Origin: a virus
Taxonomy: Duplodnaviria > Heunggongvirae > Uroviricota > Caudoviricetes
Virus record (IMG/VR): IMGVR_UViG_3300025162_000035
DNA: 19,963 bases
Strand: one strand, 5' to 3'
This document shows positions 1,589 through 19,963 of this stretch, in pieces. The number at the start of each line of letters is the position of its first letter. The first letter of the stretch is position 1. The notes under the pieces are model-generated. The model was not told the DNA's origin, did no database searches, and saw nothing but the letters and a program-made list of their open reading frames with translations. The position numbers were made by a program, and so were the translations under genes.

Positions 1589-1900
1589 ATGAAAATTAAA
1601 CGGTTTAACGAAATATCAGTTGGGCAGCCATGGGATAGTCAAGCGCACAGAGAATTTTCAATTGATATGAGTGTTGTAAAGGCTCACGATAGCACACCAA
1701 ATTATTTATCAATTATTAGAAGTATGATTAGAAAGGGTGAAGGTAAAGTTTGGGTGAATAATATTGAAGGTAATACAGCACACATTAGATCGTGGCAGTT
1801 TGATATTCTTGGTGATGCAACGGTTCCAGTTGAAGCATTAAAAGGTTTTAGTATGAAATCATGGACTACTAATAACGTAGCAAAAAAATTTGATATGTAA
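1589..1900 (+). CDS. Hypothetical protein, MKIKRFNE.../...KKFDM tagged family
   Basis: Start moved to ATG 1589 after the TTAATATATA motif; family N- and C-terminal motifs. Confidence 0.75.
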   Translation: MKIKRFNEISVGQPWDSQAHREFSIDMSVVKAHDSTPNYLSIIRSMIRKGEGKVWVNNIEGNTAHIRSWQFDILGDATVPVEALKGFSMKSWTTNNVAKKFDM

Positions 1901-2449
1901 CTATCCTTTATAAATTTTTATCATGTATGGTGGTATGTTACCTTTAATTCTAAACCCATGACCATATAAAGCACTATCCCCAAGAGAATTACCACAATCA
2001 ATATTACTGTGCAATCTTTTGTTTCTTAGTTGATCAGCATCTGGTTTTAAATGGTATATTGGTGCATCGATTTCATACACTGTAATTTTGTTGTATGGAT
2101 ATGACATTTCGCCAAATGTTTTAGCCATTGATGGAAAGAGTGACAAATATGTAAATCCTGGTTGGCTTTGCAAACTTTTTTTGGTTGATTCTTTGGTTTT
2201 CATCAACCCCTGATTCATTATATCATGTTCATCAGATGTTCCATGGTAAAGTTTAAGGCAAGCAAATTTGTTAGCTCTAAGGAATTTATTCACAGCTTCA
2301 ATATCTTTAGGTGTTGGGTCTTTGTAGAGCAAAGTTTTAAATGGCTCAGTTGTCATTGGATCAATAACCTTTGGGGTAAATGAAGTGGCAACTGGTGATA
2401 TTTTGTGCCCGATGTAGGAATTTTCGAATAGCTCAAATTTTGTGATCAT
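1901..2449 (-). CDS. Putative ADP-ribosyltransferase-fold protein
   Basis: LYHGTS...I...GL, then FTYLS...AKTFG and VYEID, matching the ART/Tpt1-like strand order; MITKFELFEN start. Confidence 0.55.
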   Translation of the reverse strand: MITKFELFENSYIGHKISPVATSFTPKVIDPMTTEPFKTLLYKDPTPKDIEAVNKFLRANKFACLKLYHGTSDEHDIMNQGLMKTKESTKKSLQSQPGFTYLSLFPSMAKTFGEMSYPYNKITVYEIDAPIYHLKPDADQLRNKRLHSNIDCGNSLGDSALYGHGFRIKGNIPPYMIKIYKG

Positions 2450-2486
2450 AAGCTATATATAATTTTTTATTTTTTATATATAGGCT

Positions 2487-3353
2487 ATGAAGTATTTGAA
2501 AACTTTTTTAGAATCAGCCGATAGTCCAGACCTTGTTGGAAGATTTTCACCAGCGGAAATGCGGACCGCAGCCACAAATGATGACCAATTTGCTGAAAAG
2601 TCAATGAGACCATTTGTTAAAGGCTGGTATGCTGGTAAAGCTGGTAAAGCATCCTCAGATTTGGAAGATATGATGAATGATAATCGATGGGGTACTATGG
2701 GAAGCAAATACGGAATATCTGATTATTTTTACAAAAATCTTTTATCTAAAGTCCCAGAATTTGAAGGATGTAAATTAAGAGTCGATGATAATAAAGAAGA
2801 TGGCAAAATTGGTTTTTATGTTGGTAAAAAACACCGAATTATAGGGACAAAATATGAAGCAGCATTAGAAATTTGGGTTCATTTTCATACAAAATATATT
2901 AAAGTATTCAACTATGAAAAAGGAAAAATAAAACTTCTTTTTTCTTGTGGAACAAACGATGCTATTGAAGGCTCAATTAATAGGGCTGATACACAAGATG
3001 AAGATAAATTATTCGATAAGATTTTGACTGATATTTTAAAAGATCATCCTGACAAAAAATACTCAACATCATTACAGGTCTATGGTAAAAATTTAAATAA
3101 GGATTCATTCTTAAAAAAATTGCCACAAGTCAGAAAGGACTTCAAATATTTTGAAAATTACGTTATTCCTCAGGCAATATTTGAATTTCAGGAACATCTT
3201 TATTTGAATAATTTTCCAAGGTTTTTTGAATTAATAATGCATAGTGATGATAAATCGTATGATGATATATCACCAAGAATTCTTGCAAAATATAAAAATC
3301 AAATACCACAAAAAATTAAGGTTGGAGTAAGTTCCGCCAGATTCGATTTATGA
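2487..3353 (+). CDS. Hypothetical protein, MKYLKTF.../...RFDL family
   Basis: 288 aa ORF with family termini. Confidence 0.85.
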   Translation: MKYLKTFLESADSPDLVGRFSPAEMRTAATNDDQFAEKSMRPFVKGWYAGKAGKASSDLEDMMNDNRWGTMGSKYGISDYFYKNLLSKVPEFEGCKLRVDDNKEDGKIGFYVGKKHRIIGTKYEAALEIWVHFHTKYIKVFNYEKGKIKLLFSCGTNDAIEGSINRADTQDEDKLFDKILTDILKDHPDKKYSTSLQVYGKNLNKDSFLKKLPQVRKDFKYFENYVIPQAIFEFQEHLYLNNFPRFFELIMHSDDKSYDDISPRILAKYKNQIPQKIKVGVSSARFDL

Positions 3354-4759: not shown

Positions 4760-5788
4760 CAAAGAAACACAGGTTGTTGGTTTACAATTATTATAAAATT
4801 TTTCATTCATACTTTTATTATATTGAAAAGAAATATAATCATTTTCTTCACAGTATTTTTCTAATGATTCTTTTTTGGGTATAATTGTTTTATAATAATA
4901 ATCCCATTTCCTTTGTAAATCTTTATTAGATATTATTGTCTTACATTCAACAATATAAATTCCTTGTGTTGTTGTTATTTTGAAATCTGGGTTATATTTT
5001 TTGGTTATACCATCAATTACAAAATTTATTAAAAAATTACATCTTTCTATATTTAAAACTACAAAATTTTTCTCAAAGTAATTCAAACAACTATATTCAA
5101 CTTTAGAATCACATCTTATTAATTTATCCTTGTATTTATAGCGGCATTTTATACTTTTTAATTTTGGTTTAAATATGCCATCTTTTATTTTATTGCTCAC
5201 AAGTTTAGATAAATTTTCTTTTATTTCTTTTGTCATTGAACCTTTTGATGCACAACTAACACTACAATATTTTTGTTTATTTCTTCTTACCCATTTAGAT
5301 TTGTATTCTTTATGACAGTATTCACAATTTTTTTCAACATATTTTGGATTTGTGTTTTTTATAGTCTTTATTTTAATTTTTTTATTTTCAAATCTTTTTT
5401 TAGATGCACAACTAACACTACAAAATTTCCTATGCCTGACACTCCATTTTAATTCAAATTCTGAATTACAATATAGACACACTTTTTTAATTGTATCTGG
5501 TAAGCCTTTTTTTAAAGTGATTCTAATTTTATTTTTTGTTTTTTCTGGCATTTTTTTATTTTTATTAGTTTTTGATGCAGAACAAGACATCGAACAAAAA
5601 GTATTCCTTCTTTTATCATATTCAATTATATTTGAACAATTTAAACATAATTTTGGTTTTTTATTATAAATATCTATTCTATTTTTTTTAAGAACTTTTA
5701 TTTTCTCTAAAGATTTTTGGTTAGCCTTTTTATTATTTTCGAAAATTTTACCAGATTTATAATAATCCGAATTTTTAATACTTGCCAT
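4757..5788 (-). CDS. Putative free-standing endonuclease: three Cys4 Zn-binding repeats plus C-terminal TnsA-like PD-(D/E)XK domain
   Basis: Three CxxC...F/YCSxSC repeats; C-terminal RCDSKVE...YNPDFKI...YIVECK. Confidence 0.7.
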   Translation of the reverse strand: MASIKNSDYYKSGKIFENNKKANQKSLEKIKVLKKNRIDIYNKKPKLCLNCSNIIEYDKRRNTFCSMSCSASKTNKNKKMPEKTKNKIRITLKKGLPDTIKKVCLYCNSEFELKWSVRHRKFCSVSCASKKRFENKKIKIKTIKNTNPKYVEKNCEYCHKEYKSKWVRRNKQKYCSVSCASKGSMTKEIKENLSKLVSNKIKDGIFKPKLKSIKCRYKYKDKLIRCDSKVEYSCLNYFEKNFVVLNIERCNFLINFVIDGITKKYNPDFKITTTQGIYIVECKTIISNKDLQRKWDYYYKTIIPKKESLEKYCEENDYISFQYNKSMNEKFYNNCKPTTCVSL

Positions 5789-7029: not shown

Positions 7030-7141
7030 GGGATTATAGTTTAATGCACCTATAACGGGATTCCAAAAAAGATGAAAGGGGTGTAGGTAGAATTCTGGGG
7101 CGCATAACCCAGCGATATGGGTTCGAGTCCCATTGCTCCCG
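7030..7141 (+). tRNA. Atypical CAU-containing (initiator-like) tRNA with enlarged D loop
   Basis: Acceptor GGGATTA/TGCTCCC (6/7), CTGGG-GCGCATAA-CCCAG, T arm ATGGG-TTCGAGT-CCCAT, ~47-nt D-loop region. Confidence 0.55.
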
Positions 7142-7186: not shown

Positions 7187-7933
7187 TTAGTTTTGTAATA
7201 CCCAGAAGTCATAAGCAAGACCTTTGGTGAAGTAAGTGTATGGTAAATAAAAATATCCATGATCACCCCAGCTTGCGCCCCAAGAATTTCGGCACACAAA
7301 CCATTTCTTATCATCATTATAACCGATTATAAGGACAGCATGACCACCTAAAAGTTGTTCACTTTTTTTTGGTAGTGGAACTTTGCCAGTTTTTGCTACT
7401 GCGGCTGATTCAAATGATTCATAAACATCCATCCCAGTTAAAACTGGTTTTTGTTGAAGAACCAAAACTTGTTTAATTTGATCCTGAGTTGCTACTGAAA
7501 TATATGATTTTATTTTATATTTCAAAGCATTTGTAACGGCAGCGTTTGTTGGGGTAACAGCAAATTTTGTGATATCATATGGGAAATAAGACTCTTCACA
7601 GATACCATAAGTTTGCATTGCTTTACCAATGTCCCTCATTTGTGCTCCACCGTCTTGAGAAATGTCACCTTCAATCTTTCTTTCTTCGAAATATTGAAAA
7701 AGACGAGAAAGATTAACTGTTAATTTATTTAGCATCACTCGTGCAGCAACACCAGCGTTAGCAGTGCAGCTACCCAATTGTCCTTGGTCATATACAAGTG
7801 GGCATTGTGCAATTAGAGTGAATATTTTGGGTATTGTAATTTTAACTGAAGGGTGTATATCTAACACGGATTTTAATTGAAGGTCCCTTTCATCTGGGGT
7901 TTGCTTCTTTAAATTATATATGTGGTTTGCCAT
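7187..7933 (-). CDS. Papain-like cysteine peptidase (C1 family)
   Basis: DQGQLGSCTANA (Gln, Cys), GGHAVLIIGY (His), RNSWG (Asn); start reassigned to MANH at 7933. Confidence 0.92.
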   Translation of the reverse strand: MANHIYNLKKQTPDERDLQLKSVLDIHPSVKITIPKIFTLIAQCPLVYDQGQLGSCTANAGVAARVMLNKLTVNLSRLFQYFEERKIEGDISQDGGAQMRDIGKAMQTYGICEESYFPYDITKFAVTPTNAAVTNALKYKIKSYISVATQDQIKQVLVLQQKPVLTGMDVYESFESAAVAKTGKVPLPKKSEQLLGGHAVLIIGYNDDKKWFVCRNSWGASWGDHGYFYLPYTYFTKGLAYDFWVLQN

Positions 7934-7962
7934 AGTTTTTTTTTTTATTGTATATATTAATT

Positions 7963-7970
7963 TACCTTTG
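7963..7970 (+). promoter_or_regulatory. Bacteroidota-type -7 promoter element TAnnTTTG
   Basis: TACCTTTG ending 17 nt upstream of ATG 7987. Confidence 0.45.
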
Positions 7971-7986
7971 TACAAAATGTGAATTT

Positions 7987-9060: not shown

Positions 9061-9085
9061 TTTTTTTATTTTAATATATATGTTC

Positions 9086-9649
9086 ATGAAGTATATTAAA
9101 ATGTTTGAAGAAATGAAATCGTGGGATATTGCTAAGTATTTCGAAGAGTTGAGAGATGCGATGACTGCTGGCAAATTGGATAAAGTAAATAGTATTATTT
9201 TTGAAGCCCCTGACGTTGTTTTTTGGCAAGATAATGATAATAGTGCTGGATGGACAGCTCTTATGTGGGGGGTGGCTGACCACACTGACACAAAAGTTGA
9301 CATAATCAAAGTCTTAATTAATGCTGGGTCTAATGTTAATGCTACTGATAATTTTGGATGCACTGCTTTAATTCATGCCGCAACTATTGATTTAGATAGA
9401 TCAACTGATAAACATCAAGCCTTAGGACAAACTAAAGAAATTCTTAAATTGTTATTAGATTCTGGTGCTAATCCATATATTAAAGATTTTGAACCAGATG
9501 AGGATGAAAAATATTATGTAAATTATACAGGCGGAGAGGATTGGTATGATCATGCGACTCCAGATATTAAACAATGGATTGAAGAAAATTGCCCAGAGTT
9601 TTGGGCAAAGAAGAGACGTGAATTGGCTCAGAAAAGGTTTGATTTATAA
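9086..9649 (+). CDS. Ankyrin-repeat protein with MKYIKMFEE/KRFDL termini
   Basis: GWTALMWG...IIKVLINAGSNVNATDNFGCTALIHAA...ILKLLLDSGANPYIKD. Confidence 0.9.
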   Translation: MKYIKMFEEMKSWDIAKYFEELRDAMTAGKLDKVNSIIFEAPDVVFWQDNDNSAGWTALMWGVADHTDTKVDIIKVLINAGSNVNATDNFGCTALIHAATIDLDRSTDKHQALGQTKEILKLLLDSGANPYIKDFEPDEDEKYYVNYTGGEDWYDHATPDIKQWIEENCPEFWAKKRRELAQKRFDL

Positions 9650-12866: not shown

Positions 12867-12943
12867 GCCTCACTATTGGCCCAGTTTTCGAAACTGGAGA
12901 CGCATAACGGATGAAAATGTGGGTTCGAATCCCTCGTGAGGTA
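12867..12943 (+). ncRNA. tRNA-like element with replaced D/anticodon region
   Basis: Acceptor GCCTCAC/GTGAGGT, T-loop TTCGAAT; centre is hairpin CCAGTTT-TCG-AAACTGG plus a poorly paired CGCATAAC. Confidence 0.55.
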
Positions 12944-13115: not shown

Positions 13116-14666
13116 ATGAAAACTATCAAAACCTCTAATAAAATATATTGGGCTCCATCTGATTTTTTGGAAGTGCTAAATAAGTTGAATTCGTCTCCAA
13201 CATCCTCATTAACTGCCAACAATAAATCAACCGATGGATTAAATATTGATGAAATTACAGGTAAGAAAATCATGATTCTTCATCGTTGTGTTAAAGAGGG
13301 GTCTAATACAACATTGAGATTAAAAGAAATAGCAGACAATATATTATCAGGAAAATGGGATCGTCACCCATTTCGTCAACGACCATTCACTTGGAAAGAT
13401 TCGAGGCAAATTCCATTTATTACAACTCTTTTAAAAAATTGCATTAAAAGTAGTACTAATGGATCAATGGCTATTGCTCCTATCTTTATCACCAAAAACA
13501 TTGAAGATAAAACTTACGTGGATGACGGATGGCAAAGGAGTAGTACTATACATCGGTTTGTGTATGGAAATCTTGAAATAAAGGGATATGATGCAGCATG
13601 GATTATTGGATTTTTCATTTTTCAGTTTATTGAATGTGCCAATAATGAATATCACCCAAACAGAAAATATTTTGTTGATACTCTGAAAAACCTTCATGCT
13701 GGGAATTTCAAAAAATTGGTCATTACGTATAAAAATCTTCCAGAATCGGTAAAAAATGAGTTTGATGATTTAGTAATGTCTGTACGTCATTTAATCATTG
13801 AGACAAGTACTTATGATTTTGAAACTGGTAAGATAACAATACGTCAGCAAGATTTAACAACAGAAAGCCCATTATGGGAGTGGTTTGTGAATGTTCAATT
13901 AGGTCAGGAAGCTATGACTAAGAAAGATGTTATCATGGCAATTCAAAATGATATCAATTATAAAACAATTGATATCAGTTATGATTTATCTACATTCTTT
14001 TTCAAAGATTCATATCAAGGACGAATGATAAATCAATCATTAATAGAAGCCTTATTATGTGTAACTGGAAAGGCTGCTATGAATAACACAAAGCAATCAA
14101 TCGATTATTTGAATAAGAACAGATTTCATGACTCCAAAAGTCCTGAGATGTTATTACTTCAAAAATTAGATTGGAATGTAAGATTGTTTTATAAAAACCA
14201 TTCAAATAGATTCAACGATTGCAAATTTAAAATGTCGCTAACTGATCTTAAATTTTATTGGTATTTATTATTATCTAATTGGGATAAATTATATTCAACT
14301 AACGGTGATGTTAGATTCCCTTTTACTTATAGTAATGAAATAAATAAAAATTATTTCAAATTTTTAGAAGTTTTAAGAGATATATCAGGTATTATCAGTA
14401 AAATAAGAAATGTTTATGATTCTAAATTGGGAAAGAAACCGTCCCAAAAAGAAATTAATGAAGTTTATGAATATGCTCTAACAATTGGTGACGATAAATT
14501 AAAGATGTTTACTATTACATATTTGACATCCTTGGTTGATTTTGCATCATTAACAAGAAATACTAAAAAGTTTTCAGCTTTTTTAAAAAATGAGGATGTG
14601 AAATTAAAAATCGATAAGATTATAGATTGTATTATTGAGCACTATAAATTTAAAAGAATAAATTAA
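13116..14666 (+). CDS. DUF262-like (ParB/sulfiredoxin fold) domain protein
   Basis: HPFRQRPFTW...FITTLLK...APIFI...YVDDGWQRSSTIHRF resembles the DUF262 QRxYxW...DGQQRxTT signature. Confidence 0.65.
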   Translation: MKTIKTSNKIYWAPSDFLEVLNKLNSSPTSSLTANNKSTDGLNIDEITGKKIMILHRCVKEGSNTTLRLKEIADNILSGKWDRHPFRQRPFTWKDSRQIPFITTLLKNCIKSSTNGSMAIAPIFITKNIEDKTYVDDGWQRSSTIHRFVYGNLEIKGYDAAWIIGFFIFQFIECANNEYHPNRKYFVDTLKNLHAGNFKKLVITYKNLPESVKNEFDDLVMSVRHLIIETSTYDFETGKITIRQQDLTTESPLWEWFVNVQLGQEAMTKKDVIMAIQNDINYKTIDISYDLSTFFFKDSYQGRMINQSLIEALLCVTGKAAMNNTKQSIDYLNKNRFHDSKSPEMLLLQKLDWNVRLFYKNHSNRFNDCKFKMSLTDLKFYWYLLLSNWDKLYSTNGDVRFPFTYSNEINKNYFKFLEVLRDISGIISKIRNVYDSKLGKKPSQKEINEVYEYALTIGDDKLKMFTITYLTSLVDFASLTRNTKKFSAFLKNEDVKLKIDKIIDCIIEHYKFKRIN

Positions 14667-16234: not shown

Positions 16235-16606
16235 ATGGGATTAGATACTTCGCACAATTGCTTTCATGGGGCATACAGTGGGTTTAATAGATTTAGGCGT
16301 TGGGTTGCTAAAAATATAGGGTATAGCCTTGATGAATTTGTTGAATTTGGCGGGTTCAAAGACAGTGCAGAACTTGAGGATCATGATTTGTTTCCATTTT
16401 TATTTCATTCCGATTGTGAGGGTTATATATCTCCATCAGACTGTAAAAAAATTGCGGATGGTCTTGATGCTATGTTAAAAAAGGTTCCATTGGTGGAGAA
16501 GATCGGTGATATGTATTGGGGCGAGAACTTTAGAGACCGAGCAATATGCTTTAGGGATGGTTGTTTAGAAGCCTATAATGCTGGGGAATTTGTAGAATTT
16601 CATTAA
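16235..16606 (+). CDS. Phage-type hypothetical protein
   Basis: 123 aa, MGLD...YSGFNRFR...HSDCEG. Confidence 0.8.
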   Translation: MGLDTSHNCFHGAYSGFNRFRRWVAKNIGYSLDEFVEFGGFKDSAELEDHDLFPFLFHSDCEGYISPSDCKKIADGLDAMLKKVPLVEKIGDMYWGENFRDRAICFRDGCLEAYNAGEFVEFH

Positions 16607-16899
16607 ATGAGAATACTCGATAAATTACAAAAGGTTAAATATAGGGTAATTCTACTATTGCCGCCTTTGATTATTATCATAGTAGTTGCCATTTTACATC
16701 AAGGGCTTCAACGTGGTAGTTTTCAAATCATTTTTTTTTTAGTGGAGCCACTTGGCTTTTAGTTGGTGTAGTAATTATATTATGGGCTGATTCTAAATGT
16801 TGGAAAGAAAAATTTGATAGGTTAAGTCTTACCCCCAGAGAATATCTTCAACAGGGCAGACGAAAAAAACTTAAAAAATTAAGAAGAGTTTGGCGGTAA
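16607..16899 (+). pseudogene. Two-TM small membrane protein gene interrupted at a T10 run
   Basis: ATG 16607 frame encodes helix 1; the -1 frame after T10 (16731-16740) encodes SGATWLLVGVVIILW...RRKKLKKLRRVWR-stop. Confidence 0.6.
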
Positions 16900-16934
16900 G
16901 AACACATAAATTTTTTTTATCCGAATAAAAAATG

Positions 16935-16942
16935 TATCTTTG
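16935..16942 (+). promoter_or_regulatory. Bacteroidota-type -7 promoter element upstream of cas6
   Basis: TATCTTTG about 23 nt before ATG 16965. Confidence 0.5.
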
Positions 16943-16964: not shown

Positions 16965-17630
16965 ATGATTCTTAAATTAACATTATCCAAAAATACTAAA
17001 ATCGTACCTTTCAATTATGCTATTCTGATTAGAGGTAAACGCCAAGGGTGGCTTGGAAACCAAGATAGGAATAAAATATCGTTATTTACATTTTCTAATA
17101 TATTAGGTGGAATATCAACTCCAAATGGATACAATTTTCCAAATGGTGGTGAAATTTATTTCGGTTATCACGATAAAACAGATATTATAAATATTATTTT
17201 AGCCATAGTAAAAAATAATAATTTTATTTGTGGCATGAAAATTATAAATTTTATTCCTGTAAATTATAATTCAATAACTACGGATGATTTTATCTGTTTA
17301 TCCCCAATTCATTTAGCAAAAAAATCAATTGGTTGGAATTCAAAAAATATACCAGTAACATATAAACATCCAGATAGTAATGTAATATTACAGGATACGA
17401 TGATACGAAAAATGCAAGCTGCTGGTGTTAATAGCAATTATTTTGACATTCAGTTTGATTTATCGGATAATACAAAATATATTAGCTCTATTTCTTATGA
17501 CGATAAAATAATAAAATATAGTGTTTGCTCACTTATCATAAAGGGTACCTCTCAGCAAAAGGAATTTTGTGTGAATGCGGGTGTTGGAAAATCAACAGGA
17601 ATGGGATTTGGATGTGTTTTACCTAAATAA
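16965..17630 (+). CDS. cas6: CRISPR-associated endoribonuclease Cas6
   Basis: C-terminal glycine-rich loop AGVGKSTGMGFGCV; LFTFSNI motif; 221 aa. Confidence 0.88.
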   Translation: MILKLTLSKNTKIVPFNYAILIRGKRQGWLGNQDRNKISLFTFSNILGGISTPNGYNFPNGGEIYFGYHDKTDIINIILAIVKNNNFICGMKIINFIPVNYNSITTDDFICLSPIHLAKKSIGWNSKNIPVTYKHPDSNVILQDTMIRKMQAAGVNSNYFDIQFDLSDNTKYISSISYDDKIIKYSVCSLIIKGTSQQKEFCVNAGVGKSTGMGFGCVLPK

Positions 17631-17639
17631 TTAAAAATT

Positions 17640-18218
17640 ATGTTTGTAGTAGTTTATAAAGGACCGTTTGGATTTATTAAGCCATATGACACTAATCGTG
17701 ATGATTATATCAAAAGTCAGAATTTTCTTTTACCGTCTGCCGTTAAGGGGATAGAATTATATTTATTTCCAGAACTATTAAAAGATAAGACACATATTCT
17801 CAAAAAGATTGTAAGATGTAAAATTAATTTTGATAATATAGTCAAAGATTTGGGAGTAATACAAAGCCCACTTGTTAAAAGAGTAAGTAAAAGGGCTACC
17901 GATAAAATGCATAGTTTTATATTAGCTACCAGTTGTATTGAGCGTGGACTTTTACACAATGTTACTGTATATGTCGGGTTTAATAATATGGATGATGCAT
18001 TAATAGCGTCAAGCAGTCATATTAGAATTAGTGGAAAAGATGAAACTTGTTACCCATCTGGTGACCGAGCTATTGAAATTTCGGATGATGAATTTGATAA
18101 AATAAGCGGGTGGGAATTTAAAGAAACAAGTCAGGATGATCCAAATTCTATTTTAGTTGGTAATAATCGATATAAAAACAATGAAAAAATATATGGAAAA
18201 ATTATCCATACTAAATAA
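17640..18218 (+). CDS. cas5: Cas5-like RAMP protein
   Basis: N-terminal VVYKGPFGFIKP and SQNFLLPSAVKGI resemble the Cas5 N-terminus; lies between cas6 and cas3. Confidence 0.62.
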   Translation: MFVVVYKGPFGFIKPYDTNRDDYIKSQNFLLPSAVKGIELYLFPELLKDKTHILKKIVRCKINFDNIVKDLGVIQSPLVKRVSKRATDKMHSFILATSCIERGLLHNVTVYVGFNNMDDALIASSSHIRISGKDETCYPSGDRAIEISDDEFDKISGWEFKETSQDDPNSILVGNNRYKNNEKIYGKIIHTK

Positions 18219-19963
18219 TATCAGGGCAAAAGGATTGCCTACAAATACTTCTTTATATCAGCATTTACATGATGCTAAAGAATTTATGAAAATTCTGGTG
18301 GAAAATTTAGATTCCACCTTTAATTTTGATTTATCCATATGTATAATAGCTGCTATATTACATGATATTGGAAAGGCTCATCCAGAATTTCAATTTAGGT
18401 TGGATAAACCATACAATCCAGATTGGAATCCGTTTAGGCATGAAATATCATCAATCCTATTCATATCGCTTTTTGATAAAAAGAATTGGGATACTATTAT
18501 AGATATGATCATAGCCCATCATAAATCTATTTATGTAAGAAGCGGCTCAAACATTGGAAGTTTTCACAAAGGAATCTTAACATTACACGACAATTTTGGT
18601 GATGATGTTTTTAATATGCATTGTGGAACCAAAGAAATGTGGGATGTGTGGTCAAAGGATGCGTTAGAAATATTATCTCATTTGGGAATATCAGTTAGAA
18701 ATATATCGTATGATGAAGCCAGACAAAATTATAATTATGTGTTAGATTATTGTCAAAAAATAAAAGATGATAATATTTGTGAAGTATCATATGATAGAGG
18801 ATTAATGAATGCTGCTGATTATATATCATCACATATTGATCAATCAAGAGGAAAAATAAATGAATTGATTGAAAAAATGTTTGTTGTTCCAGATTTTAGT
18901 TTTTATGAAAATCGGAAGAATAAAATGTATCCTTTTTCAATGATGGATATAAATAAAAAAAAGAAAAGAAAGCATACTATTATTATTGGTCCAACAAGTT
19001 CAGGAAAGACGGATATGCTCTCCAGATGTTGTAAAAAACGTGTTTTTTATATTCTTCCATTTCAGGCATCTATTAATGCCATGTATAATAGATTTCGGGC
19101 TGATCTGAATAACCCAGAAAATAAAAATTTAGCCATATCTTTATTACATGCAAATGCACAAAGTGTCTTAAATAACAATAATGATATATCGAGCCACGTA
19201 TTAAAAAATAAAATAGGTTGTGGGCTAAAGGTCTTAACACCTTATCAAATTTCAAAAATTCTTATTGGAGGAACAGGTTATGAGCAATTAATTTTAGATT
19301 TAGCTGGGCAAGATGTAATTATGGATGAAAATCAATGCTATAATGAAAGATCGAAGCCATTTATTTTAACTTTAGTTAAAGCTCTCGATAAGATTGGTTG
19401 CAATATTCATTTTGGTACTGCAACTATGCCTTCGGACTTAAAAAAGAAAATATTGAAGATTTTAGGACGTAACAACGTTGATGTAATAGAATTATCAAGA
19501 AAACAAAAAGCTGAATTTGACAGGCATATTGTATATAAAAGAAATTCTTTTGATGATTGTACGGATGCTATTAATGATGCGGTTTTACAAAATAAAAAAG
19601 TTTTAGTTGTTGCTAATACAATCGATGAATCTATACGTTTATATAAAATATTGAAAAGTAGATATTCAGATAAAAATAAGGTTCTTTTACACAGCCGATT
19701 TAAGCGAAAAAATCGAAATTATAAAGAAACGTTATTGTTCGATAAATCTTTTTTAGCGAATGGCTGTATAGTTGTTTCAACTCAAGTTGTGGAAGTAAGC
19801 TTGGATATAGATTTTGACGTTCTTTTTACTTATTGCTGTCCCTTGGATAGTTTACTACAGCGAATGGGTAGAATAAACAGAAGGCGTGGATTTAACAAAA
19901 TTTGCCCAGTTTATGTCATAAATGTGTATGATACTCCAGCAAAAGAAATGGTTGGTGGGTATA
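18193..19963 (+). CDS. cas3: Cas3 HD nuclease-SF2 helicase, 3' truncated by window edge
   Basis: Read manually (absent from ORF track): YQH, LHDIGK, RHE, AHH, AAD; GPTSSGKT, MDENQ, TATMP, LHSRF, STQVVEVSLDID, QRMGRINR; no stop through base 19963. Confidence 0.92.
   Translation, partial: MEKLSILNNIRAKGLPTNTSLYQHLHDAKEFMKILVENLDSTFNFDLSICIIAAILHDIGKAHPEFQFRLDKPYNPDWNPFRHEISSILFISLFDKKNWDTIIDMIIAHHKSIYVRSGSNIGSFHKGILTLHDNFGDDVFNMHCGTKEMWDVWSKDALEILSHLGISVRNISYDEARQNYNYVLDYCQKIKDDNICEVSYDRGLMNAADYISSHIDQSRGKINELIEKMFVVPDFSFYENRKNKMYPFSMMDINKKKKRKHTIIIGPTSSGKTDMLSRCCKKRVFYILPFQASINAMYNRFRADLNNPENKNLAISLLHANAQSVLNNNNDISSHVLKNKIGCGLKVLTPYQISKILIGGTGYEQLILDLAGQDVIMDENQCYNERSKPFILTLVKALDKIGCNIHFGTATMPSDLKKKILKILGRNNVDVIELSRKQKAEFDRHIVYKRNSFDDCTDAINDAVLQNKKVLVVANTIDESIRLYKILKSRYSDKNKVLLHSRFKRKNRNYKETLLFDKSFLANGCIVVSTQVVEVSLDIDFDVLFTYCCPLDSLLQRMGRINRRRGFNKICPVYVINVYDTPAKEMVGGY

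Follow-up and report, generated by a model that had tools for sequence, protein, structure and literature searches.

In Bacteroides fragilis, genes cas5, cas7 and cas8b6 of the 'Type IB' system have diverged to the point that annotation servers label them as hypothetical, and the gene order departs from that of canonical I-B systems (Tajkarimi & Wexler 2017, PMC5704556). For huge phages, CRISPR-Cas systems without Cas1, Cas2 and Cas4 have already been described (Al-Shayeb et al. 2020, PMC7162821; review PMC11656645); those highlighted in PMC7162821 are a type I-C variant without Cas6 and Cas3, and class 2 systems. The type I-F system of Vibrio phage ICP1, a phage of a gammaproteobacterial host, carries an adaptation module of its own and is able to acquire spacers (Seed et al. 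2013, as reported in PMC11656645). A locus related to the first of these systems was found in IMG/VR virus record IMGVR_UViG_3300025162_000035 (Caudoviricetes), whose whole stretch of 19,963 nucleotides (nt) is referred to below as the window. Genes cas6, cas5 and cas3 at the right end of the window very probably belong to an interference-complete type I-B cassette of ~7.8 kb, of the Bacteroidota (Cas8b6) branch, carried by a large freshwater phage that is rich in transfer RNA (tRNA) genes and low in guanine plus cytosine (GC); the window ends inside this cassette.

The cassette consists of a small open reading frame (ORF), genes cas6, cas5, cas3, cas8b and cas7, a gap of 67 nt and a CRISPR array of ~22 repeats, all on the plus strand. 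The name of subtype I-B reportedly follows the classification of Makarova et al. 2015. Gene cas6 (window 16965–17630), encoding a protein of 221 amino acids presumed to be the endoribonuclease of the precursor of CRISPR RNA (crRNA), is identified by Pfam PF01881 Cas_Cas6_C (4.4e-10), TIGR01877 (6.1e-14) and PADLOC Cas6b (3.1e-42); its product is 30% identical to the syntenic Cas6 of Bacteroidales. Gene cas5 (17640–18218), encoding a protein of 192 amino acids, begins after a gap of 9 nt. Scans of this protein against Pfam and NCBIfam gave no match. The profile search of 17640–18218 that the first-pass annotation had proposed identified the product as Cas5 of the I-B type, since PADLOC I-B Cas5 models match over the full length (PDLC01480, 1.9e-37; PDLC02093, 5.9e-37); BLASTP also relates it to the product of the gene at the cas5 position of a Bacteroidales contig, L005 (1e-29). 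Gene cas3 (from 18157 or 18181 to 19962), encoding an HD nuclease fused to a superfamily 2 (SF2) helicase, overlaps cas5 by 38 nt when read from the ATG at 18181. It is open at the window end, with codons 1–594 of 731 inside the window, and the full gene would stop at window coordinate 20376. Its product matches TIGR01587 cas3_core (3.4e-54), TIGR01596 cas3_HD (3.4e-13) and, as the full protein, PADLOC Cas3b (7e-213).

The ORFs and profile matches confirm the three co-directional, tightly coupled genes cas6-cas5-cas3 reported in the first-pass annotation. Its statement that cas7, cas8 and an array are absent from the window also holds: scans of window ORFs against Pfam, PHROGs and NCBIfam revealed neither cas7 nor cas8, and the core of the array repeat is not matched anywhere in the window when up to three mismatches are allowed.

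Contigs with cassette genes were found in metagenome assemblies by exact-protein look-up. Over 8153, 1668 and 2889 nt, respectively, contigs L001, L012 and L003 show 100% identity to the window, and contigs L019, L020 and L021 are 99.98–100% identical to L003; because the overlaps are 100% identical, the downstream contigs are assigned to the same phage as the window. A window coordinate equals the L003 coordinate plus 16749. Gene cas8b (L003 3636–4955, plus strand) begins 8 nt after cas3 and encodes a protein of 439 amino acids, matched by PADLOC Cas8b over residues 1–422 (7.7e-54) and by the product of the syntenic Bacteroidales gene in BLASTP (9e-25). It is followed by gene cas7 (L003 4985–6163, plus strand), encoding a protein of 392 amino acids matched by PADLOC Cas7b (1e-41). 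Neither Cas8 nor Cas7 gave any match in Pfam and NCBIfam scans. The array (L003 6231–7635, plus strand) contains repeats of 36 nt and spacers of ~30 nt. Of the readings offered in the first-pass annotation, a type I locus seen only in part is thus the correct one, and the parts appear to be missing because the window edge cuts the locus inside cas3. Genes cas7 and cas8 and an array immediately downstream of cas3 represent the arrangement that, according to the same annotation, would make the locus an ordinary type I system.

All five cas ORFs are intact and identical on at least nine contigs from several studies, and the samples that yielded cassette sequences are freshwater and lake metagenomes of four studies, dated 2016–2020. 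No match to the locus was found among cultured phages by blastn. The first 325 nt of L003 have no match to other contigs and trim cas6 to 131 amino acids; either the assembly is chimeric here or the contig carries a structural variant. Beyond this stretch, L003 agrees at 100% identity with the window and with the other contigs.

The order cas6-cas5-cas3-cas8-cas7 is common to contigs L005 and L006 of Bacteroidales and to the phage contigs, and the five phage proteins are collinear with those of the Bacteroidales operon, with identities of 28–41% and E values of 9e-25 to 2e-169. The nearest homologues of Cas3, with identities of 39–43%, belong to Bacteroidales, Marinifilaceae, Chitinophagaceae and Ignavibacteria. 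Besides the order of the effector genes, the cassette shares with the Bacteroidota I-B systems ('Type IB', cas8b6) the divergence of Cas5, Cas7 and Cas8 beyond the reach of Pfam and NCBIfam, and an array located downstream on the same strand with a period of repeat plus spacer of ~65 nt. For this branch, both the unusual gene order and a middle gene that escapes recognition are normal. In the Bacteroidales operon, however, cas7 is followed by cas4-cas1-cas2 and only then by an array, with a repeat of 30 nt ending in ATTGAAAT, whereas in the phage cassette no cas4-cas1-cas2 were detected, the array directly follows cas7 and the repeat of 36 nt ends in ATAACAAC. The cassette also differs in its probable carriage by a phage, in the low identity of its proteins to the bacterial ones and in motif II of Cas3, which reads DENQ instead of DEIH. 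Neither this motif, nor the frozen and eroding array, nor the plasmid-directed spacer, nor the sister genome with an empty site, all considered below, alters the classification as I-B.

A homologous cassette is present in IMG/VR contig IMGVR_UViG_3300020048_000023 (G001; 160.9 kb, estimated to be 67% complete) and in Logan contig L004. Contig G001 was found only via the repeat core, while a search of IMG/VR with the back-translated Cas3 gave nothing. The two cassettes are alike in their five genes, the gene order, the position of the array directly after cas7, the 3' repeat core of 21 nt and the absence of Cas1, Cas2 and Cas4 matches. They are unlike in the sequences of the proteins (38–51% identity), in motif II of Cas3, which is DEIH in the relative, in the first 15 nt of the repeat and in the surroundings, since in G001 and L004 tRNA genes follow the array and a TROVE/Ro60 gene lies upstream. 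In L004 this gene, encoding a TROVE (Ro60-like) protein, occupies positions 1735–3174, ~6 kb upstream of cas6. The neighbours of the window cassette, proteins of 431 and 516 amino acids, were not found in the related phage contig.

The cassette is absent from the same site of contig L022, belonging to a sister phage 91–96% identical to the flanks in the window. In L022, the gene for a 123-amino-acid protein, which ends at window position 16606, is joined to the gene for a 117-amino-acid protein that in the cassette-bearing phage lies after the array, with 54 nt between them. What varies is thus a segment of ~7.8 kb, made up of the small ORF at 16607, the five cas genes and the array. The three Cas3 proteins from phages group together in a single clade with a support of 1.0 on a long stem, and the neighbourhood of the cassette differs between the two phage lineages; because of this clade, the differing neighbourhoods and the cassette-free L022, the cassette is considered to be old in the phage group and to be gained or lost as a unit.

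Genes of the adaptation module, cas1, cas2 and cas4, were found neither among the window ORFs (Pfam, PHROGs, NCBIfam) nor in the gene tables of a sister contig of 28.8 kb, extending ~10 kb past cas3. In G001, no Pfam match to Cas1, Cas2 or Cas4 was obtained, while control genomes gave matches. The repeat core is absent from 185,579 species-representative genomes and from metagenome contigs of the Joint Genome Institute (JGI); as no host array with matching repeats was found, spacer acquisition in trans has no support. The array is the same in five assemblies. Its region of 1527 bp shows 100% identity among L003, L010/L020, L019 and L021; the partial copies L012, L013 and L023 are likewise 100% identical. 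With cas1, cas2 and cas4 missing from the available sequence and no difference between samples in the array, the guides carried by the phage form a fixed set. In one assembly (L011/L018, positions 2560–3306; Logan, SRR5754711), units 1–10 are missing and repeat 1 is joined cleanly to spacer 11, reflecting a deletion or an assembly collapse.

With the huge-phage systems, as far as they are presented in PMC7162821, the locus shares interference genes and an array with no adaptation genes nearby, and a spacer aimed at another mobile element; its carrier is probably also a large tRNA-rich phage. Unlike the systems highlighted there, it contains a full five-gene I-B set, including Cas8 and Cas3. 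The system of ICP1, in the account of PMC11656645, resembles the locus in being of type I and phage-borne, in occurring in only some of the isolates and in being aimed at a mobile element resident in the host; it differs in its subtype, its host and its capacity for spacer acquisition.

On the plus strand, the repeat is composed of a variable 5' part of 15 nt, a stretch of 13 nt in which a weak hairpin of 4 bp is possible, and the 3' end of 8 nt, ATAACAAC. In folding, this hairpin does not exceed shuffled sequence in stability, and for this reason its structure alone proves nothing. It ends exactly 8 nt before the 3' end of the repeat; this position, together with an orientation matching that of the bacterial repeats ending in ATTGAAAT, suggests rightward transcription and a 5' handle of 8 nt. 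The 3' part of 21 nt is kept in every unit of the array, and the array of G001, with its different 5' part, has an identical core of 21 nt at the 38–51% protein identity noted above. Since this core is kept in all units and in a diverged lineage, it argues for continued selection, presumably on crRNA processing and handle binding, acting on the part of the repeat that Cas6 and Cas5 would contact. No support was obtained for the idea of the first-pass annotation that Cas6 processes the neighbouring tRNA-like RNAs, because the window does not contain, at the mismatch threshold given above, the part of the repeat that would be recognised by Cas6. In the array of G001 (L008 3090–3509 and L007 1–1020), the presumed handle of 8 nt varies from unit to unit (ATAACAAC, ATAATAAT, ATAAAAAT, ATAGTAAT), while the 13 nt before it never change.

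The mean GC content of the spacers is 42%, versus 31% in the phage, and no spacer matches the ~45 kb of available sequence of the phage itself. Spacer 10 matches three repeat-free JGI contigs (45% GC) at 29/30 and 28/30 positions, with the first 26 nt exact; the 5' flank of the protospacer is TCG. Between two of these contigs and the third, identity is only 82%. The protospacer is located inside a gene encoding a ParA-like ATPase (PHROG 164, 7e-67; Pfam AAA_31, 3e-61), adjoining a gene for a DnaB-like helicase. The closest DNA relatives of this parA gene are found in plasmids of Tenacibaculum and Hymenobacter, and no relative of it was detected among cultured phages or in IMG/VR. The likeliest target of spacer 10 is a plasmid-like replicon of a Bacteroidota host. 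Scans with spacers 1 and 4 at full length, with seeds of 23–24 nt of spacers 4, 6, 7 and 14, and with spacer 10 in IMG/VR revealed no target, and the whole array gave only a chance-level match of 23 nt (E = 0.4) to cultured phages.

In the proposed mechanism, the operon and the array would be transcribed rightwards. Cas6 would cut each repeat at the base of the weak 4-bp hairpin, leaving the 5' handle of 8 nt, AUAACAAC, and Cas5, Cas7 and Cas8b would assemble on the crRNA as a Cascade complex. Cas3 would then be recruited and would nick and degrade matching DNA. The phage probably uses its fixed guide set during infection against competing mobile elements in a Bacteroidota host.

Alignment of Cas3 confirmed two statements of the first-pass annotation, namely, that the HD motifs are kept and that helicase motif II reads DENQ rather than DExH. 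The motif corresponds to residues 382–385 (window 19324–19335), and DE[I/V]H occupies this position in 121 of the 121 homologues aligned, including the phage relatives P0003 (51% identity) and G001 (51–53%). Sequencing error is dismissed because the same protein is encoded on at least nine contigs. The HD residues, Walker A (GPTSSGKT) and motifs III, V and VI are retained, and 129 of 154 near-invariant columns are kept, versus 127 of 154 in the phage relatives. In other SF2 enzymes, the histidine of DExH helps couple ATP hydrolysis to unwinding. Glutamine is normal at this position of motif II in helicases of the UvrD/PcrA type (DExQ) and can still form a hydrogen bond. The change of histidine to glutamine could be tolerated or could uncouple ATPase activity from unwinding.

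A number of observations weigh against a working, phage-encoded interference system. A target was found for only one of ~21 spacers. The assignment to a phage draws on the density of tRNA genes, a few PHROG matches and the related IMG/VR record, and is to that extent presumptive. The negative result for adaptation genes covers the window and the 9 kb downstream of it, and cas1, cas2 or cas4 could still lie elsewhere in the genome. Motif DENQ occurs in no other Cas3 of the comparison, and because it replaces a sequence universal among the homologues, helicase coupling may be altered or lost. At the end of the array distal to the cas genes, the 5' part of the repeat is eroded by slippage deletions in ATACATAC and by substitutions, the spacers there are only 18–26 nt long, and no spacer gain was seen in any sample compared.

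The features of the array would also fit a decaying, non-functional relic, in which the change of histidine to glutamine cripples Cas3, the frozen array erodes and loss of the cassette from the phage population is under way. The uniqueness of DENQ, the degenerate 5' ends of the repeats with their internal deletions, the short distal spacers and the identity of the array in all samples are in line with such decay, as are the assembly without units 1–10 and the sister phage without the whole cassette. A relic is nevertheless unlikely: the five cas ORFs are intact and identical across the contigs of several studies, Cas3 is no poorer in conserved positions than its phage relatives with DEIH, the 3' part of the repeat is strictly kept and is exact even in the lineage with strongly diverged Cas proteins, and glutamine is normal in DExQ helicases.

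A further reading is rather improbable in our estimate. An adaptation-free I-B system would have been kept in a clade of large freshwater Bacteroidota phages through deep divergence (Cas proteins down to 38% identity), with only the 21-nt part of the repeat contacted by Cas6 and Cas5 frozen; in the present lineage, the change of histidine to glutamine would be functional and would alter the coupling of ATP hydrolysis to unwinding, for example, giving short-range nicking instead of long-range shredding.

It is very unlikely that the DENQ Cas3 is an altered enzyme, such as an uncoupled ATPase that nicks or blocks DNA, and that the cassette silences or nicks its targets with no shredding. In its favour, an otherwise invariant histidine has been exchanged, the remaining catalytic apparatus is intact and the protein has become fixed in the population; in other helicases of SF2, moreover, mutation of this histidine can leave ATPase activity separated from unwinding. 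However, one substitution confined to one lineage fits a neutral or slightly deleterious change equally well, and the residues of the HD nuclease are intact.

An even smaller probability is given to a plasmid or a bacterial genomic island as the carrier of the cassette instead of a phage. No structural phage gene was identified within the window, and the Cas proteins are closest to cellular proteins of Bacteroidota. Against this stand the 14–16 tRNA genes and the PHROG matches of the window, a gene for a class I aminoacyl-tRNA synthetase downstream, and the homologous cassette on the 160.9-kb viral contig of IMG/VR. Finally, a minimal system without Cas7 and Cas8 or a partial 'hijacking' module using host Cascade, both put forward in the first-pass annotation and suggested by the lack of cas7, cas8 and an array in the window taken by itself, are refuted and retain practically no probability, because cas8b, cas7 and the array lie directly past cas3 in sequence 100% identical to the window.

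The locus is accordingly a standard effector set cut by the window edge, and the false lead of a Cas7/Cas8-less or parasitic module is cleared. It adds a documented case in which the full set of five I-B genes is carried by what is probably a large phage; a sister genome has the empty site, the array is frozen and one spacer is plasmid-directed. This is in line with the idea that phages deploy fixed sets of guides against rival mobile elements. The erosion of the repeats marks, from conservation alone, the needed part of the I-B repeat, and the natural DENQ Cas3 offers a cheap and specific test of the role of the motif II histidine in Cas3.

At the left edge of the variable segment, a small hydrophobic ORF of 51 amino acids (16607–16762, plus strand) is located, which is absent from L022. 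In two sister contigs this ORF has 97 amino acids, and a run of ten T residues (16731–16740) probably shifts the frame in the window. A motif of 16 nt, TTTTTTTATCCGAATA (16912–16927, plus strand), precedes cas6 by 37 nt. An exact second copy immediately follows the last repeat (L003 7635–7650; window coordinate ~24384–24399), while L022 contains a single copy (5665–5680) between the same flanking genes. The pair could be a duplicated promoter or a footprint of recombination. Each copy is followed, 5–8 nt further on, by a TAnnTTTG box. The box ahead of cas6, TATCTTTG (16935–16942, plus strand), which the first-pass annotation had pointed out, is indeed present 22 nt before the ATG and is a candidate for a −7 box of the Bacteroidota type. 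TAnnTTTG is not enriched in the window, with 38 occurrences versus 34 expected by chance, and because the count is near chance, the box alone is no evidence of a promoter.

A gene at 13116–14666 (plus strand) encodes a protein of 516 amino acids that resembles the GmrSD N-terminal (DUF262-type) domain at a level short of the Pfam cut-off (E = 2.6e-5) and has PHROG matches of unknown function; it may be a relative of modification-dependent nucleases. ARAGORN called 14 tRNA genes in the window, several of them 84–90 nt long, and two further regions, 7030–7141 and 12867–12943 (plus strand), gave weak Rfam tRNA matches (32 and 30.5 bits) and were not called by ARAGORN. Within the tRNA region, genes encoding a papain-family cysteine protease (7187–7975, minus strand; Peptidase_C1, 7.7e-18) and an ankyrin-repeat protein (9080–9649, plus strand) were also found.

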